This document shows positions 50,975-61,827 of a stretch of 64,000 nt of DNA, piece by piece. Each line of letters opens with the position of its first letter. The first letter of the stretch is position 1. The notes under the pieces were generated by a model, which saw nothing but the letters and a program-made list of their open reading frames with translations, was not told the DNA's origin and searched no databases. The stretch spans positions 66,251 to 130,250 of the forward strand of contig JANPIZ010000004.1 of assembly GCA_031425235.1 (NCBI GenBank). The letters are read 5' to 3'. Origin of the DNA: Candidatus Nomurabacteria bacterium (GTDB lineage Bacteria > Patescibacteriota > Minisyncoccia > Phycocordibacterales > UBA9973). A program made the translations under genes and the position numbers.

Positions 50975-51006
50975 AAAAAAAATCCCCCATTACGGGGGAT
51001 TTTTTC
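50975..51006. terminator. bidirectional intrinsic terminator
   Basis: aaaaaaaatcccccattacgggggattttttc. Confidence 0.7.
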
Positions 51007-52571
51007 TAGTTCTCGATGAATATCGGTTTCTTTTTTAACTCAGTGCACGCTGCTGATGCTCCCCCATTTTTACCGTTGCATGTCCAAGTCCACTTAGAAA
51101 TACCGTTTACATTACTACCGCCTGTCGCGCTGCCGCTGGGATTTGTACCAACAACACAATTGTAATGATTGGCAGCACACTTGGCTGCAATAGGGAGAGG
51201 GCCACCAGGGCCTCCGGGGCCAGGACCCGCACACGCTTGAGTTGTAGGAGGTTGTGGAAGAGGGCATTGTGAGCCTCCGTTTGACGGAGGAATACATGTA
51301 ACTGTTCGAGTTCGTACTCCGTTAATACATGGTCCCCAATCACCTGTTTCCCAACGTCCATCAATCGGTGCATTTTCTTCTACGCACAAGCTTCCGTTGT
51401 ACTTAGCTCCCTGCTCACATCTTGCTGTGATAGGTGCTTGGGCTAGAATTAAATTATTATGATACAAATAAAATGTACTTGACCCTTCGTTCACTATGTT
51501 CGAAAAATTTGTGGCTGAAGTATTTGTAGACACCGTTGTATTGTTGGGATTATTCCTTGTTACAGCAGTATTAGCCCCAGGAACACGATTTTGTGTGTCC
51601 CAAGTTACTGAAGAAGTACATGTAGAGCTTCCGATGGGTATGGTGCAAGAAGTTGCTGATATAGTTCCTGACGGAGCTATGTCTGCAGAACAGGTGCTAC
51701 CATTCCATGTGCTGTTTCCGCCACAGGTAGTAGTTACTGTCGCCAACGCCAGCTGCTCTGAATTATTGTATAAATAAAAAGTAGTTACACCGTCAAAATC
51801 AGTATTGTATCGAACTGTAAAAAGTTGAGATCCATTATTGCCATTGGCTGAACTTGGTGTTGCTCCTCCATTATTAGTAACTGCTGAAGTGCCTACGGGA
51901 TTAGTTGTAGTCCATGTTAATGTTTGAGTGCAGGTGCTTTGCCCAGAAGGAATAGTGCAGGTTGATGATGGTGGGATAAGGGTGCCGGACATGGGGGAGG
52001 TAGTTCTAGTTATGGTGAAGGTGCGAGACATAGGAAGCGGATCTAAGGGATGACCTTGAGTATCATAATACTCATTACCTTGACTCATAACTCCATAAAA
52101 ATCAGGGTATTGAGAACATGAATATCCTGGCAATTGACAATTAGGATTATCAACAGCTGGATTGGGATTATTATTATATATAGTTGCCGTTATTGTATAG
52201 ATTCCTGCAGACCACGCAGAAACATCTACGGTATGATTTATGAAACTATTCGCTGCCCCAGATTGGAACATTACTGTGCCAACACTATTAGTAATAATAT
52301 AGTTTAAGCTAGTTTGTCTATCTATAACACCGCTGCCACTATTTGTATGAGGATTATAATGACTACAAAACCAACTTCTTTCCCCAGATATGTTTACATT
52401 AATATTGCTTGGGTTGGAGTACACACCTGTAGGGCTATTCATAGTAGATATACTAGGATGGACTGCAGGCTCATTACCACAACTAGCAAGAGCAATTTCT
52501 GACTTAAAAAACACTCCGGAGACTACTAACAGGCTCACTAAAACAAAAAGGTTAAAAAATTTTAATTTCAT
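51006..52571 (-). CDS. secreted T/S/N-rich protein with Cys-rich C-terminal region (hypothetical; adjacent to pilus cluster)
   Basis: Signal peptide (LFVLVSLLVVSGVFF), low-complexity T/S/N-rich body, multiple paired Cys in the C-terminal third. Confidence 0.45.
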   Translation of the reverse strand: MKLKFFNLFVLVSLLVVSGVFFKSEIALASCGNEPAVHPSISTMNSPTGVYSNPSNINVNISGERSWFCSHYNPHTNSGSGVIDRQTSLNYIITNSVGTVMFQSGAANSFINHTVDVSAWSAGIYTITATIYNNNPNPAVDNPNCQLPGYSCSQYPDFYGVMSQGNEYYDTQGHPLDPLPMSRTFTITRTTSPMSGTLIPPSSTCTIPSGQSTCTQTLTWTTTNPVGTSAVTNNGGATPSSANGNNGSQLFTVRYNTDFDGVTTFYLYNNSEQLALATVTTTCGGNSTWNGSTCSADIAPSGTISATSCTIPIGSSTCTSSVTWDTQNRVPGANTAVTRNNPNNTTVSTNTSATNFSNIVNEGSSTFYLYHNNLILAQAPITARCEQGAKYNGSLCVEENAPIDGRWETGDWGPCINGVRTRTVTCIPPSNGGSQCPLPQPPTTQACAGPGPGGPGGPLPIAAKCAANHYNCVVGTNPSGSATGGSNVNGISKWTWTCNGKNGGASAACTELKKKPIFIEN

Positions 52572-55103: not shown

Positions 55104-55191
55104 CATTGCGCGAAAACACTAATACGTTGTATAATTAATGGAGGCCTTTTATTTTTTACAAAGGTTTAATTATAAGTTTAACTTTAAAATT

Positions 55192-55911
55192 ATGAAAAAA
55201 TATTTAAGTTTATTGATTGTTTTGTTGTTAGTGGGTACAGTGGGTATAAGTGCAGCACGAGCAGAGACTAGTGTCAGTCTTGACGCTCAAGGTGAAGTTA
55301 AGCTCGACGGAAGTGGAGGAAAAATGCAAGAACTTCGAAAGGAAATGCAAGATAAAAAAATGGAGCTAAAAGCAGGATTCGAAGCAAAAAGACAAGAAAT
55401 GAAGACTAAGTGGGAAAGCTTGAGACTCGAAGCAAAAGCAAAAATGGAAGCCTTGAAAGAAAAAGTTAAAGAGGAAAAGGACGCGGCAAAAGCAAAGATA
55501 AAAGAACTCAGAATCACTGGACGTGAAAACGCGCTAGCTCGATTTGACGTCGCAATTAGTAGGATGAGTACACTTTCTGACAAAGTCAGCCTTCACATTA
55601 CGAATCTAAAAGCAAAAGATATAGATGTGACTGCGGCAACAGCTTTTGTTGTCACAGCCGACGCAAAGCTAGAAGCAGCAAAAGCTAAAACAGTCGCAGT
55701 AAACGAATTGCTTTCAAAGTCGGTTGACCAGCTTACCGCCGAAGAAAAAACAAAATTACGAACCCTCACTCAAGAGACACAAGCGCTTCTTCAAGATGCT
55801 CGCCAAGCATTGAAGGAAGCCGTAAAAGCACTCAAGGAAGCCGTAAGAATAAAAATAGAGGCCAAGGCAAAAGTAAAAGCTGAAACAAGTACTGAGGCAA
55901 CCACTCAATAA
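55192..55911 (+). CDS. secreted coiled-coil K/E/A-rich protein (hypothetical)
   Basis: Signal peptide MKKYLSLLIVLLLVGTVGISAARA, then long K/E/A-rich helical repeats; ORF extends upstream to 55138. Confidence 0.5.
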   Translation: MKKYLSLLIVLLLVGTVGISAARAETSVSLDAQGEVKLDGSGGKMQELRKEMQDKKMELKAGFEAKRQEMKTKWESLRLEAKAKMEALKEKVKEEKDAAKAKIKELRITGRENALARFDVAISRMSTLSDKVSLHITNLKAKDIDVTAATAFVVTADAKLEAAKAKTVAVNELLSKSVDQLTAEEKTKLRTLTQETQALLQDARQALKEAVKALKEAVRIKIEAKAKVKAETSTEATTQ

Positions 55912-56355: not shown

Positions 56356-57465
56356 ATGCTAAAAACAAAAATCACAAAACTACCAAAAAGTGAGGTTGAA
56401 ATAGAGGGTTCACTACATGAAGACGCCTTTGAACAGTACTACAGCAAGGCACTTAAAAACATAGGCGCAAATGTAGAGCTTGATGGATTTAGGAAAGGTA
56501 AAGTTCCTGAAAGTGTTCTTGTTTCTAACATTCCAGAAAATCATATATTGGAAGAAATGGCTCAGCTTGCAATAAACGAACACTACCCCAACATATTAGA
56601 AAGTGAAAAAATTGATGCTATCAGTCGACCAGAAATTTCCATTACTAAACTCGCTCGAAAAAATCCACTTGAGTTTAAAATCAAAACAGCGATATTACCG
56701 CACATAACACTCCCTGACTATAAAACAATAGCCAAAGATATCTCGGCAAGTGTTACCGATGCAGAAAAAAATGTAGTGGTGTCTGACGATGATGTCGAAA
56801 ATGCTATTTTGGATATTAGAAAATCTCGTGCGCCGCGAACACATGTAACGGAAGTAGCTACAGAGGAGAACAAAGAAACACCCGAAAACACAGAACCAAA
56901 AGTAGAACCTGCCCGCAATGCTTCTGACATAGCTGATGCAGGCGGGGAACTCCCAGAATTCAATGATGAATTTGTGAAAAATCTTGGACCATTTGAAAAT
57001 GTCAAAGATTTTAAAAATAAATTAAAAATAAATTTGAAACTCGAGAAAGAAAACGCTCAGAAAGAAAAAACAAGATTGAAAATCATTGAAGAAATAATTG
57101 AAAAAAGCCATCTTGAAGTACCTGAAATTCTTATTGATATCGAAGTCAATAAAATTTTGCAAAAAATGGAAGCAGATATAACTCAAATGGGCTTAAAATT
57201 TGAGGATTATTTAAAGCACATAAACAAAACCATTGAAGACTTAAAAAAAGAATTCCGCATTGATGGCGAGAAAAAAGCTAAACTTTCACTTATCTTAAAT
57301 GAAATATCTAAGGTAGAAAAGATAGTCCCCGATCCTGAGCTTGTAAAAAAAGAAGTCGAGGCTATCATGGAACACTACAAAGATGCTGACCTCGAACGAG
57401 CAATAATGCATGTAGAAAATGTGTTAGTTAATGATCAAATTTTCAAACTTCTTGAAACTCAATAA
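56356..57465 (+). CDS. tig: trigger factor (short form, apparently lacking PPIase domain) with in-frame mini-element insertion
   Basis: DGFRKGKVP hallmark; 369 aa; PARNASDIADAGG inserted just before conserved ELPEFNDEF. Confidence 0.8.
   Translation: MLKTKITKLPKSEVEIEGSLHEDAFEQYYSKALKNIGANVELDGFRKGKVPESVLVSNIPENHILEEMAQLAINEHYPNILESEKIDAISRPEISITKLARKNPLEFKIKTAILPHITLPDYKTIAKDISASVTDAEKNVVVSDDDVENAILDIRKSRAPRTHVTEVATEENKETPENTEPKVEPARNASDIADAGGELPEFNDEFVKNLGPFENVKDFKNKLKINLKLEKENAQKEKTRLKIIEEIIEKSHLEVPEILIDIEVNKILQKMEADITQMGLKFEDYLKHINKTIEDLKKEFRIDGEKKAKLSLILNEISKVEKIVPDPELVKKEVEAIMEHYKDADLERAIMHVENVLVNDQIFKLLETQ
56908..56947 (+). repeat. palindromic mini-element copy in frame in tig
   Basis: cctgcccgcaatgcttctgacatagctgatgcaggcgggg (central hairpin degenerate in this copy). 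Confidence 0.85.
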
Positions 57466-57518: not shown

Positions 57519-58124
57519 ATGTTAATACCAACTGTTATAGAAAAATCACAATTTGGTGAACGAGCGTATGATATATACTCACGTTTGCTCCGTGAACGTA
57601 TCATATTTTTAAGTGGCCCTATCGATGACCATGCTTCCAATATCATCATTGCTCAGCTTCTTTTCCTGGAATCAGAAGATTCGAAAAAAGATATATTTCT
57701 ATACATAAACTCTCCTGGTGGGTCAGTTACATCCACTCTCGCGATAGTCGACACCATGAACCACGTCCGTCCTGATATCGCTACATTTTGCGTAGGGCTC
57801 GCTGCTTCGGGTGCTGCTATCGTATTGTCGTCTGGTAAAAAAGGCAAAAGGTACGTGCTGCCAAATGCTGAAATTATGATTCATCAACCTCTTGGTGGTG
57901 TCGAAGGCCAGGCGTCCGATATTGCGATCACTGCAAAACACATCCTTAAAACAAGAGATAATTTAAACAAGATGCTCGCAAAAAATACAGGAAAATCTGT
58001 GTCTCAGATAGAAAAAGATGTAGAGAGAGACTTTTTCATGGACGCTGATGAAGCCAAGAAATACGGTATTATTGACGAAATAGTTACAAAATCAAAAATT
58101 CCAGAGAAAAAATCGAGTAACTAA
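57519..58124 (+). CDS. clpP: ATP-dependent Clp protease proteolytic subunit
   Basis: [12 protein letters not shown], catalytic Ser context GLAAS, His (MIHQP), Asp. Confidence 0.9.
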
Positions 58125-58127
58125 AAA

Positions 58128-60020
58128 CTAAACTATTTTAATAGTCCCCTCTGAGTTGCCGGCCATTATATAGTCGGCAACTTTGTTTTCCACGAGGTCT
58201 TCGATAGCTCTTTTTATTGGTCTTGCGCCAAACTGCGGATCAAAGCCAGCTGCAGCCACTTTGTCTATCAAAGCATCTGTTATATCTAAGGTTATTTTTT
58301 TATCTTCTTGTAGTCGGTCCGCAAATTCAGCAAGTAGAAGTGAAGCTATCTGCCTCCCCTGTGATTGATCAAGTGGTTTGAAAAGGATGACGCTATTAAA
58401 GCGATTTAAAAATTCTGGCGCAAATGCACCATTTTGTATTACGGTATTTATAAAAGTTTTCTTTTCGATATTTGGGTTCGCCATGATATCACTACTCCCG
58501 GCGTTCGAAGTTGCGATAATAATAGCGTCTTTAAAGCTTGCTTCCCTACCCGAGCTCTTTGTTAGTCGCCCTTCATCAAGAACTTGTAAAAGTAAGTTTC
58601 GAACGAGAACATTTGACTTTTCAAGCTCATCAAAAAATACAAGAGAAAGTGGTGCTTCCTCAATAGCGCTCGTGAGCCTGTCAGTAAAAGCAATCGTAGA
58701 TCCCTCAAGCGAAAACTCACTCATGTCAAAACGAATCATGGCATTTTTCCTACCAAAATAACTTTCCGCTAGTATTTTTGCCGTATATGTTTTACCGACA
58801 CCAGTCGGACCCAAGAAAAGAAAGCTCCCTGCGGGCTTGCTGTGATCCGCGATACCGGTGCGAAGTCGCACTAAAGCCTCCGTAACATCTTCCACGGCTT
58901 CATCTTGTCCAACTATTTTCGCCCTCATGGAAGTTTTGAGATATTGTAACACCTGTCTTTCGTCTGCGCTGATAGCTCCGATCGGCATATTGATCTTGTC
59001 AGATATGATCTGTTGTACATCTTCTACTGTGATGGTTTTGCCGAGAGTTTTGAGTTCCTCGAGCACACCGATGGACTTTATTGGTTGGGATTGATTGCCA
59101 ATTAACCGATCTGTCAATCTAACAATTTCAAAAACAGCATCTTCATGTATAGATATGTCGCTCTTGCGCGCATTGTCTCTCAGTATCATCATCGTATCCT
59201 CGACGCTTGTTTCATTCAAATCAACTTTTGAAAATTTGGACAAAAATTCGGGGTGATTTTTTAATACTTGGTCATAATTTGAAAAATCAGTCGTCACCAC
59301 AATTCCAAGATGCGCCACGGAAAGGTAAGGTAAAAGTTTTTCATACATAGATTCGTAGAGGTGTATATTTTCTATCACTAGAATAATGTTGCCGGCAGCA
59401 GCAGCTTCTTTGAGACATTTTTCAAAATCAGATACGTTTATGTCTTCTACGAACAATTCAACTACGCGATGATGATGAATACCGGGAAAAGACATCCCAG
59501 ACTTACCGAGGAGCCCTAAATATGACACAACAGTCGACTTACCGGTACCGGTCTCCCCCACAATAAGTACATTATGATTTGAATCCTTCGAAAGACCACG
59601 CTCTATCATGCGGAGTGCTTTTTCTTTACCATACACTTTCTGTGTTGAGGCGTCTCCAAGATCACGACTATGGGCGTTAAGTGTGTACGTTTCGCCATAC
59701 GAAAGCGATGAACCAAAACTAGGCAAGCCTTCAAAGTATTCTTTACTTATTTTTAAAGGTAAAAAGAAAAAAATCGGAAACGTTCCAATGGTGACGAGTG
59801 TGAACAGAAGTCCAAGGATAATAAGTATACTGCGAGCAAAAAATCCAAGCATTCGTGAGAAGATGGAGAATATAATTCGTTCAAACAAGGTGGAGTGTGC
59901 CCCGACATCTTTGTCCATTTTCCAGGGCAAAAACAGAGTATCAGCAAGGAGTGGAATAGAAAAAGCATTGTACGCATAGACCACGAGGTTCCTCCACGAT
60001 TGTATTCCAGGATGCATCAC
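58128..60020 (-). CDS. membrane-anchored two-domain Clp/Hsp100-family AAA+ ATPase
   Basis: N-terminal TM helices; D1 GETGTGKST with degenerate Walker B (ILVIENIH); D2 GPTGVGKTYTAKILAESYF, FDELEK, sensor region; no canonical Clp N-domain. Confidence 0.7.
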   Translation of the reverse strand: MMHPGIQSWRNLVVYAYNAFSIPLLADTLFLPWKMDKDVGAHSTLFERIIFSIFSRMLGFFARSILIILGLLFTLVTIGTFPIFFFLPLKISKEYFEGLPSFGSSLSYGETYTLNAHSRDLGDASTQKVYGKEKALRMIERGLSKDSNHNVLIVGETGTGKSTVVSYLGLLGKSGMSFPGIHHHRVVELFVEDINVSDFEKCLKEAAAAGNIILVIENIHLYESMYEKLLPYLSVAHLGIVVTTDFSNYDQVLKNHPEFLSKFSKVDLNETSVEDTMMILRDNARKSDISIHEDAVFEIVRLTDRLIGNQSQPIKSIGVLEELKTLGKTITVEDVQQIISDKINMPIGAISADERQVLQYLKTSMRAKIVGQDEAVEDVTEALVRLRTGIADHSKPAGSFLFLGPTGVGKTYTAKILAESYFGRKNAMIRFDMSEFSLEGSTIAFTDRLTSAIEEAPLSLVFFDELEKSNVLVRNLLLQVLDEGRLTKSSGREASFKDAIIIATSNAGSSDIMANPNIEKKTFINTVIQNGAFAPEFLNRFNSVILFKPLDQSQGRQIASLLLAEFADRLQEDKKITLDITDALIDKVAAAGFDPQFGARPIKRAIEDLVENKVADYIMAGNSEGTIKIV

Positions 60021-60294
60021 CTTATTCTATCACAGATAATTAAGACAGAAAATAAAGAATTCCCTGCAAGTAGACAAAATACCGCTAATCTGTTATACTA
60101 TTTTTGTTAATTTACAAATTTATTTTCTTAATTTTTAGTCGGGTTCACAAGAATATCCATATATTATTATGTTTTCAAAAGAAACAAGAGAAGATACAAT
60201 CATAGAAATTTTCCCAATCTCTTTGTGTAAAATTTTTTTAGGGAAACAGAGCCGAATATATAATGGCTTGTTCTTGTAGGCTTGAAACAAGCTT

Positions 60295-61827
60295 ATGAGC
60301 ATAACATTAATCACAATTCTAATAAGCGCACTGGCGCTTCTTTTAGGTGTTGGAGTAGGATACTATTTGCGTTTCATTATAGCCCTTGGCAAGAGACGCT
60401 CAATCGAAATAGATATCAAGCAAATGATGGTTGGCGCGAAAGAAGAATCGCAAAAAATCATTGATGAAGCAAAAAAGATATCAGAAACAAGGCTCGCGGA
60501 ATTAAAAGAAGAAGAGAAGAAAAAAGAGCAAGAATTCAAAGAAACTGAAAAAAGACTCATCAAAAAAGACGAGTTTCTTGATGGGCGCCAAACTGAGATA
60601 GATAAAGAAGTAGAAAATATAAAAACAAAGGTAGAAGAAATAAAGAAAATACAAGAAAAAGTTCAGAAAACAGAAGCTGAAAAGACTCTCGAGCTCGAAC
60701 GAGTATCTCAGCTTTCTAAAGAAGAGGCAAAGGAAGAATTACTTAAAGATGTTGAGAAAAATTACGAGGAAGATCTTGTCGTCCGAATTCAAAAACTTGA
60801 AAATGGCAATGAAGAGAAGTTGGAGCGCCGAGCAAAAGACATATTGGCTACAAGCATCCAACGTCTCGCTAAAAGTACGGCCTCTGAGCTCATGACCACA
60901 GTGGTCACTATCACCAACAACGAAATGAAAGGTAAAATCATCGGTAAAGAGGGGCGAAATATCCGCGCGTTCGAACGAGCGGCAGGTGTCGAACTTATCG
61001 TCGATGATACTCCAGGCTCGATAGTCATTTCTTCATTTGATCCTATTCGTAGACAAGTCGCTCGTCTTGCACTCGAAAACCTGATTCTCGATGGACGTAT
61101 CCAGCCAGCTAAAATAGAAGAGCTCGTCGAAAAAGCTAAGGAAGAAATCAATAAGATCATTAAAGAAAAAGGTGAACAAGCAGTATACGAATGCGGCATA
61201 TTCAATCTCGACCCACGCATCGTGGCTATTGTCGGTCGGCTATATTTCCGTACCAGCTTCGGACAAAATGTACTCCAACACTCAATAGAGATGGCCCACA
61301 TCGCCGGCATGATCGCTGAGGAACTTGGTGCTGATGTTGCCATAGCAAAAGCCGGCGCCCTCGTTCACGACATAGGAAAAGCTCTCGACCATGAAGTACA
61401 AGGTACGCACGTGGATATCGGTATGCGTATATTGCAGAAATTTGGTGCTGATGAACGCATTGTGACAGCTATGAAGAGTCATCACGAAGCATACCCATAT
61501 GAAACTGTTGAATCTATCATCGTTCAGACCGCCGATGCAATATCTGGCGGACGCCCTGGAGCACGACGTGACTCAGTTGAAAATTATTTGAAACGACTGC
61601 AAGAGCTCGAAACCCTTGTAAATGCATTCCCTGGCATCGAAAAATCCTATGCTCTTCAAGCTGGCCGTGAGATCCGCATATTTGTAACACCCGAAAAGGT
61701 AACTGATGCCGAAGCAAAGATCATGGCTCGCGATATGGCTATAAAAATAGAACAAGAACTCAAATATCCAGGTGAAATCAAAGTCACTATGATCCGAGAA
61801 ACACGTATTATCGAATACGCTCGTTAA
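60295..61827 (+). CDS. rny: ribonuclease Y
   Basis: N-terminal TM, coiled coil, KH domain (GKIIGKEGRNIRAFE), HD domain (HSIEMAHIAGMIA...VHDIGK). Confidence 0.9.
   Translation: MSITLITILISALALLLGVGVGYYLRFIIALGKRRSIEIDIKQMMVGAKEESQKIIDEAKKISETRLAELKEEEKKKEQEFKETEKRLIKKDEFLDGRQTEIDKEVENIKTKVEEIKKIQEKVQKTEAEKTLELERVSQLSKEEAKEELLKDVEKNYEEDLVVRIQKLENGNEEKLERRAKDILATSIQRLAKSTASELMTTVVTITNNEMKGKIIGKEGRNIRAFERAAGVELIVDDTPGSIVISSFDPIRRQVARLALENLILDGRIQPAKIEELVEKAKEEINKIIKEKGEQAVYECGIFNLDPRIVAIVGRLYFRTSFGQNVLQHSIEMAHIAGMIAEELGADVAIAKAGALVHDIGKALDHEVQGTHVDIGMRILQKFGADERIVTAMKSHHEAYPYETVESIIVQTADAISGGRPGARRDSVENYLKRLQELETLVNAFPGIEKSYALQAGREIRIFVTPEKVTDAEAKIMARDMAIKIEQELKYPGEIKVTMIRETRIIEYAR

Follow-up and report, generated by a model that had tools for sequence, protein, structure and literature searches.

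Hsp100/Clp proteins are textbook polypeptide-threading motors. In ClpA, ClpB, ClpC and ClpX, pore-1 loops of the KYR and GYVG type grip and translocate the polypeptide, and the aromatic-phi-glycine (Ar-phi-Gly) pore-1 loop is needed for translocation in ClpX, ClpA and ClpB. Other AAA+ ATPases work at membranes: FtsH and Msp1 have aromatic pore loops, and Bcs1 handles a folded client, which it does not thread in the classical way. Torsins, which are ClpB-D2-like, membrane-associated AAA+ proteins of the eukaryotic endoplasmic reticulum and nuclear envelope, are lumenal, have a single AAA+ domain with no aromatic pore loop, no arginine finger of their own and a Cys-containing sensor-2, and work with a dead AAA-like partner, LAP1 or LULL1. 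In proteins of the NSF/p97 type, one ring binds nucleotide without hydrolysing it and serves oligomerisation (D2 in NSF). Here we describe a gene in a 64,000-nucleotide stretch (the window) of contig JANPIZ010000004.1 from a Candidatus Nomurabacteria bacterium, which encodes a Clp-like ATPase on the minus strand at 58128..60017. An original prediction, made from the letters alone, had presented it as a membrane-tethered ClpA/ClpC-like unfoldase standing in place of clpX. We found that its second AAA+ module (D2) retains a complete ATPase site, that its first module (D1) is degenerate, that the pore-1 loops of both modules are deleted and that its N-terminus is a conserved membrane module. The explanation that fits best, and in which we place about even confidence, is a ClpP-independent membrane AAA+ remodeller that is powered by D2 and uses D1 as a pseudo-ATPase scaffold.

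The Clp-like gene and its family assignment

The coding sequence, the coordinates of which were checked by translation, begins with the ATG at 60017 and ends with a stop codon at 58128-58130, specifying 629 amino acids. It lies after tig and clpP on the opposite strand, as the original prediction had it, although the open reading frame listed there (58128..60020, minus strand, 630 amino acids) started with a GTG directly followed by the ATG. Full-length homologues (more than 100) have 628-631 residues and begin with MHPG, indicating that the ATG at 60017 is the real start and that the GTG at 60020 lies one codon too early. Residues are numbered throughout from this ATG, and all features of the gene given below are on the minus strand. 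Full-length identity to more than 110 homologues was 67-79%, which argues against a chance open reading frame, and the identical 629-residue architecture in more than 100 homologues ruled out a gene-fusion or frameshift artefact. The nearest named homologues came from metagenome-assembled genomes of Candidatus Paceibacterota, Nomurabacteria and Minisyncoccia. The G+C content of the window is approximately 38%.

When the protein was searched against Pfam, AAA_2 (5e-34) and ClpB_D2-small (3e-20) were matched, both in the C-terminal half. The NCBIfam ClpA model aligned continuously over residues 128-623, and the ClpB model covered mainly D2. The scores missed by far the equivalog cut-offs for ClpB (300.8 vs 1232 bits), ClpA (264.9 vs 993) and TssH (210.6 vs 885), and no equivalog score above cut-off was obtained for ClpA, ClpB, ClpV, ClpG or ClpK. 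The NCBIfam ClpX model (NF003745.1) gave a weak match. An AlphaFold2 model (pLDDT 81) was compared using Foldseek, and ClpC, ClpB and ClpA chains were returned with TM-scores of 0.64-0.70 and 26-31% identity. Among the hallmarks of class-I Clp/Hsp100 proteins, the two tandem AAA+ modules and the C-terminal D2-small domain are present, and Clp_N, a competent D1, aromatic pore-1 loops and an equivalog score are absent; the docking tripeptide of ClpP partners and the M-domain of ClpB/Hsp104 are likewise missing. Taken on its sequence, the Clp-like protein is a descendant of the class-I Clp/Hsp100 two-ring ATPases.

Several other families were considered. The original prediction had left room for a closer match to FtsH, and the profile comparison gave a ClpA/ClpB-type D2 instead: there was no FtsH or Peptidase_M41 match, D2 is of the AAA_2/ClpB type and a D1 is present, which rules out an FtsH fragment. 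FtsH, Msp1/ATAD1, Bcs1 and archaeal LonB resemble the Clp-like protein in joining transmembrane (TM) segments, N-terminal or internal, to a cytoplasmic AAA+ ring at the membrane, but they have no relation to it beyond the AAA+ fold, and neither an M41 nor a Lon protease domain is found here. Torsin membership is contradicted by the two modules and by the invariant R539; the Pfam Torsin match around Walker A was below the cut-off (E = 2.7e-4). Anti-phage defence ATPases (PADLOC DolB, PDC-M37B) were matched at a generic AAA_2 level of 77 bits, and the gene lies in housekeeping synteny, so this candidate was rejected as well.

A complete D2 ATPase site and a degenerate D1 module

D2 and D2-small together form the active AAA+ module (58131..59042, residues 326-629; Pfam AAA_2 and ClpB_D2-small). 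In an alignment of 110 sequences from the close family, Walker A (GPTGVGKT, 58788..58811), Walker B (FFDELEK within LVFFDELEK, 58617..58643, including D463 and E464), sensor-1 (TSN), the arginine finger R539 (motif NRF, 58401..58403) and sensor-2 (GARP with R599, 58218..58229) were all invariant. With every one of these catalytic elements kept, D2 would be the motor of the protein, and its trans-acting arginine finger implies assembly into a ring. The same conservation bears on a reading that takes the protein for a paralogue in decay, or for a scaffold that is no longer an enzyme and has no ATP-driven function. The progressive loss of N-domain, M-domain, D1 catalysis and both pore loops would be in keeping with such a relic, but the catalytic residues of D2 vary little or not at all, both in the more than 110 close homologues and in the 119 distant representatives, and both length and sequence, N-terminal module included, are well conserved, which makes this reading highly improbable.

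D1 (59043..59642, residues 126-325) presented a different picture. When PDB sequences were searched with phmmer, D2 aligned strongly to ClpC and ClpB (204-214 bits), whereas the D1 region (approximately residues 106-325) aligned weakly to the D1 of ClpC and ClpB (31-45 bits), and the Pfam matches in D1 were to generic P-loop families only. Walker A (GETGTGKS, 59535..59558) is intact here and degenerate in most of the wider superfamily described below. Alignment of the family revealed a degenerate Walker B (IILVIENIH, 59361..59387), with the Asp position taken by E in 92 sequences, K in 15 and R in 3, and the position of the catalytic Glu taken by N in 108 and D in 2. At the arginine-finger site (EFLSKFS, 59229..59249), alignment to ClpB and ClpC showed that the ERRF of their D1 has become LSKF, so that the D1 arginine fingers are gone. 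D1 is thus, judged from these residues, catalytically dead: it would be unable to hydrolyse ATP because the catalytic Glu and the arginine finger are missing, and it may still bind nucleotide in this protein because the P-loop is intact. These results agree with the original prediction, whose motifs in D1 (intact Walker A, IENIH as degenerate Walker B) and D2 (GPTGVGKT, FDELEK) were verified by translation and which had called D1 probably inactive. An M-domain was not found: no residues of the protein fall between ClpC 398 and 467 or between ClpB 390 and 520, and the AlphaFold model contains no coiled-coil.

Loss of both pore-1 loops and of the ClpP-docking tripeptide

The original prediction had overlooked that both pore-1 loops are deleted. 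At the D1 site (FVEDINVSDF, 59424..59453), the AG.KYRG of ClpB and ClpC is missing, seen as a 5-residue gap in the pairwise alignments to both proteins. In D2, the truncated pore-1 loop region (58677..58724, MSEFSLEGSTIAFTDR) lacks GAPPGYVGY; relative to Thermus thermophilus ClpB and Bacillus subtilis ClpC, 12 residues are missing between strand beta-2 (MIRFDM) and helix alpha-2. The deleted stretch is the Ar-phi-Gly pore-1 loop itself; the protein has no G-Ar-phi-G, the alignment puts F444 opposite the structural Leu of RLIG, and no conserved aromatic residue was found in the residual D2 loop across the wider family. Because both pore-1 loops are deleted, canonical polypeptide threading is unlikely, and the term unfoldase is not supported.

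The segment that carries the ClpP-docking loop in ClpA, ClpC and ClpX (IGL, VGF and IGF, respectively) corresponds to 58419..58496 and is a short, ClpB-like helix-turn-helix. No [ILV]-G-[FL] tripeptide is present in the 23 residues between D2 sensor-1 and F-x-PEF (SDIMANPNIEKKTFINTVIQNGA), and the spacing from SNAGS to F-x-PEF, 23 residues here, is 34 in B. subtilis ClpC, which has VGF, and 27 in ClpB. Since the docking tripeptide is absent, as the original prediction had noted for IGF and IGL, the protein is likely to be ClpP-independent.

A conserved N-terminal membrane module

The Pfam search of the protein gave no Clp_N (PF02861) match. The original prediction, in which TM helices replace the Clp N-domain, was therefore right about the absence of Clp_N and understated what stands in its place. 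The first 88 residues (59754..60017, approximately 90 amino acids) form a module with four invariant residues (F19, T27, W32 and P81) and six near-invariant ones (S20, L24, F29, G58, R62 and I66) in relatives ranging from 79% down to 25% identity and including both the short and the long forms introduced below. When the isolated module was searched against Pfam, no significant family was found, and a fold search against the PDB gave no match. Residues 106-126 align with ClpC 155-175, where ClpC, like ClpB, has a conserved TPTLD...DLT segment ahead of D1, which limits the non-Clp part to approximately residues 1-90; the linker and first D1 element occupy residues 89-125 (59643..59753).

Three elements were distinguished within the module. 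Helix A (59925..60011, residues 3-31) carries the motif W..L....(F/Y).FS(I/V)..L..TLF.PW(K/R) and is moderately hydrophobic, with a Kyte-Doolittle maximum of 1.39 here and 1.7-2.2 in many relatives, and it may be a TM or an interfacial helix. Helix B (59832..59888, residues 44-62, LFERIIFSIFSRMLGFFAR) is amphipathic, with a hydrophobic moment of 0.50, a mean hydrophobicity of 0.28, a polar stripe of E46/R47/S51/S54/R55/G58/R62 and a motif SR..G...R that is conserved across relatives. Core C (59757..59831, residues 63-87) was assigned as transmembrane from its hydropathy: the 19-residue Kyte-Doolittle mean peaks at 2.46 over residues 65-83, and the Eisenberg mean hydrophobicity is 0.85 for residues 63-87. 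The hydrophobicity of the segment is thus strongly TM-like on both scales, in line with the membrane tethering that had been proposed.

The path of the module through the membrane is less sharply defined. AlphaFold placed helices at residues 3-18 and 21-29, followed by a loop and a single continuous helix 44-85 that joins B and C (44-77/85); positive-inside and hydrophobic-moment analysis gave no single topology. The linker between A and B is basic in many members (for example, PWKRQFWKKQKRG), and the hydrophobic stretch after R62 comprises approximately 50 residues in long forms versus approximately 30 in short forms. The basic linker and the long-form insertion favour a cytoplasmic N-terminus with a hairpin, and are not decisive. 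From its conservation pattern, the N-terminus is a family-defining membrane module and not a generic anchor.

A membrane-anchored superfamily across Patescibacteria

The gene belongs to a superfamily with short forms of approximately 630 and long forms of approximately 800-900 amino acids. Residues 1-340 were used as the query of an exhaustive HMMER search through 1.84 billion cluster representatives, which gave 1554 matches at E <= 1e-3, of which 223 were at or below 1e-10 and 17 at or below 1e-30. The short architecture of approximately 640 amino acids was represented by approximately 11 of the 50%-identity clusters, and the rest of the best 150 of the 1554 matches were nearly all approximately 740-990 amino acids long, also with N-terminal hydrophobic segments. 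Many of the long forms carry the same module, WHY...FFSI..LL.TLF.PWKR (type 1). In others the N-terminus is of another kind, with two TM segments (type 2) or with a zinc-ribbon and TM. Named long-form members belong to Portnoybacteria, Gottesmanbacteria, Moranbacteria, the Parcubacteria group and the 'Patescibacteria group'. The third N-terminal type was seen outside the window in P0316, P0318 and P0379, where CxxC...CxxC precedes the TM segments; these three proteins have an intact D1 Walker B (DEV), yet lack GYVG and the ClpP loop.

In a motif census of 119 representatives, the D2 Walker A, Walker B, sensor-1, arginine finger and sensor-2 were near-invariant. The D1 P-loop was mostly G..G.G(K/R)(K/H/R), the Walker B DE was kept in only 16 of the 119, and the D1 arginine fingers were missing throughout. 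A G-Ar-phi-G occurred in the D2 pore-loop segment of a single representative (1/119), and GY[VIL]G in D2 was found in none of the 119 and in none of the top superfamily matches. The protein of the window has every feature that marks this group, namely the N-module motifs with the hydrophobic core, the degenerate D1 and the active D2 without GYVG. On these shared features, it belongs, as a short form, to a membrane-anchored Clp-like superfamily that extends across Patescibacteria, previously unnamed and defined here; the literature searches found no paper that describes its members. In the databases its members are labelled 'AAA family ATPase' or 'ATP-dependent Clp protease ATP-binding subunit (ClpA/ClpC)'; the latter kind of name implies ClpP-coupled proteolysis, to which the sequence lends no support.

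The D2 pore segment measures 28 residues in canonical proteins; the majority of long forms have 22-24 and the short forms 16. P0162 (637 amino acids, outside the window), which is related to the short form and has no TM segments, retains a D2 pore loop of intermediate kind (LIGGPGYEAGG). This protein and the long forms (LIGS..----....G) suggest that the pore loop was eroded stepwise within the superfamily. This gradation is relevant to an alternative, in line with the original prediction, in which the protein is a ClpP-free dislocase or unfoldase that extracts misfolded membrane proteins, by analogy with Msp1 or the FtsH ATPase part, and threads its substrates through the central channel by non-aromatic or other pore residues. 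Such a protein would be expected to have a membrane anchor and a complete motor, as this one does with its N-module and D2; it also keeps the pre-sensor-1 beta-hairpin and, overall, the fold of ClpC/ClpB, and some long forms retain one Tyr in the shortened D2 loop (GGPGYEAGG, QGYL, SGGYL), pointing to a graded loss. However, the short forms lack the whole GAPPGYVGY segment together with the D1 KYR loop, what is left of the loop has no aromatic that is conserved across the family, and translocation by ClpX, ClpA and ClpB is known to need the Ar-phi-Gly loop. We consider the dislocase unlikely, though the least so of the three rivals weighed in this study.

Synteny with clpP and the search for clpX

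The clpP gene (57519-58124, plus strand; profile match of 272 bits) is convergent with the Clp-like gene and forms a separate transcription unit, and RNase Y (60295-61827) lies divergently on the other side. The stop codons of clpP and of the Clp-like gene are 3 nt apart (58124-58131) with no terminator-like hairpin between them, and the two convergent transcripts would therefore overlap. In close relatives (approximately 67% identity or more), the order LexA-HU-RNase Y-[Clp-like gene]-clpP(-tig...NusA) was kept, and clpP was convergent and adjacent, at 0-1.1 kb, in all 18 close-relative loci with enough downstream flank. Ten other loci had neither clpP nor RNase Y nearby; eight of these contain members at 58-67% identity (L003, L028, L030, L032, L033, L037, L040 and L044) and two contain distant members (P0263 in L008 and P0124 in L010). 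The flanking genes are better conserved than the Clp-like gene (ClpP 87-91%, RNase Y 85-92%, HU 88-93%), which sits in housekeeping synteny and has a typical conservation, between that of tig and LexA. Hence the adjacency to clpP is the expected synteny of close relatives and not evidence for a functional unit. No partner gene was conserved across the loci of the Clp-like family, and an operonic link to clpP was ruled out by the convergent orientation and by the loss of adjacency outside one clade. In some Nomurabacteria, an unannotated open reading frame of approximately 300 amino acids without a Pfam match is inserted between the Clp-like gene and clpP (L001 11971-12882 and L002 5184-6074, both minus strand).

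A clpX gene was not present at its canonical place after clpP in any close-relative locus. No P-loop or ClpX-like open reading frame came up as a candidate in the 64-kb window, phmmer revealed none in the fetched loci, and blastp of an approximate E. coli ClpX against 79 metagenome loci gave no ClpX; beyond the window, the sequence covered amounted to an extension of approximately 9 kb and 0.85 Mb of related loci.

These data could be read to mean that the protein is the ClpP partner that replaces ClpX, docking by an interface other than IGF and tethering proteolysis to the membrane. The neighbouring clpP in every informative close relative and the lack of a clpX in the loci searched are what this reading would predict, and ClpP itself is so strongly conserved that it presumably has an ATPase partner. 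Yet the docking segment is short and ClpB-like and contains no [ILV]-G-[FL], the pore loops that would feed a protease are gone, and the genes are convergent and not co-transcribed. In addition, the adjacency disappears in members at or below approximately 67% identity and in distant members, as general synteny predicts, and the RNase Y, HU and LexA flanks are co-conserved in the same manner. A ClpP partner is accordingly improbable. What the original prediction termed 'in place of clpX' stands as a description of position; the arrangement is convergent, not operonic and limited to one close clade. Overall, the sequence evidence indicates that the Clp-like protein probably does not act as a classical unfoldase and does not stand in for ClpX.

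Proposed mode of action

The preferred explanation, a D2-powered membrane remodeller, can be put as a series of steps. The protein would form a membrane-embedded, stacked double ring, as its relatives do, in which the D1 ring would serve as a pseudo-ATPase scaffold without hydrolysis and ATP would be hydrolysed by the D2 ring only. The D2 ATPase cycle would then be coupled to the membrane module and to membrane-associated clients, resulting in remodelling, extraction or assembly at the cytoplasmic membrane; we infer this coupling because the pore-1 loops, the ClpP loop, Clp_N and the M-domain are gone and the N-module is strongly conserved. Hand-over-hand threading, whether into a protease or by tyrosine pore loops, would probably not take place.

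Several points weigh against this explanation. Position 444 is hydrophobic (F in every member of the close clade) and could still line a pore, and non-canonical threading would then be possible. The oligomeric state rests on homology and on the conserved arginine finger. The continuous helix 44-85 of the AlphaFold model conflicts with the hairpin hinted at by the charge distribution and the long-form insertion. Finally, there is the unbroken adjacency of clpP among the 18 close-relative loci.

Compared with known systems, the Clp-like protein resembles ClpA, ClpB and ClpC in its tandem D1/D2 AAA+ modules, D1 lid, ClpB_D2-small and complete D2 ATPase site; it shares the absence of an M-domain with ClpA and that of a ClpP loop with ClpB. 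Unlike all three, it has a membrane module in place of Clp_N, a D1 without catalytic Glu, arginine fingers and KYR, and a D2 without GYVG. The pairing of a Torsin with its dead partner has a counterpart here in the fusion of a dead AAA module (D1) to an active one, but the Clp-like protein differs from Torsins in having two modules, an arginine finger of its own (R539) and a canonical GAR sensor-2. The likeness to Torsins is one of mechanistic analogy and not of family membership, and Bcs1 is a possible mechanistic analogy only. As in the non-catalytic ring of NSF, D1 keeps its P-loop and lacks the residues for hydrolysis; NSF and p97, however, belong to the classical AAA+ clade (not HCLR), are soluble proteins and possess functional pore loops in their active ring.

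The family combines a fully intact ATPase ring with the loss of both tyrosine pore loops, the ClpP loop and every known adaptor domain, and with fusion to a conserved membrane module, which suggests that a fold studied in depth can work in another way. The envelope and membrane biology of Patescibacteria is largely unknown, and few chaperones and proteases are retained in these bacteria; because the family is widespread among them, it probably has a core housekeeping function. A broader proposal, which we offer tentatively and think possible though doubtful, is that the superfamily represents phylum-wide, undescribed, membrane-embedded Hsp100 derivatives that gave up threading, in which an active D2 on a dead D1 drives a conserved polytopic membrane module. 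If so, the membrane module would be the working end, for example in remodelling or gating in the cytoplasmic membrane or the envelope of these ultra-small epibiotic cells, and the mechanism would have more in common with AAA+ proteins of the Torsin or Bcs1 type than with ClpB or ClpX. The literature was searched for membrane-anchored Clp/Hsp100 proteins and for Clp systems of CPR/Patescibacteria, and nothing of relevance was found; the ClpX and ClpC of the TM7x papers are those of the host.

Upstream signals and neighbouring genes

Upstream of the Clp-like gene (60017-60040, minus strand), a Shine-Dalgarno-like AAGGTG abuts the ATG without spacing, and a -10-like hexamer, TAGAAT, preceded by TGTGA, lies approximately 8 nt upstream, suggesting that the mRNA is possibly leaderless or has a very short leader. 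The tig gene (56356-57465, plus strand), located upstream of clpP, encodes a trigger factor of only 369 amino acids with Trigger_N (residues 3-150) and Trigger_C (216-349). There was no FKBP/PPIase domain match, and the middle of the protein is a 65-residue low-complexity linker rich in E, T and P; by its domain content it appears to be a trigger factor without PPIase.

Two further open reading frames were observed in the window. The first (55138-55911, plus strand) encodes a 257-amino-acid Ala/Lys/Glu-rich predicted coiled-coil protein with a hydrophobic N-terminal segment and no Pfam match; its place between PPase/NusA and tig is kept in several relatives, at an identity of only 27-48%. The second (51006-52571, minus strand) encodes a predicted secreted protein of 521 amino acids with high Cys, Thr, Ser and Asn, near the C-terminus of which WETGDWGPC...RTRTVTC... 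presumably resembles a thrombospondin type-1 repeat.

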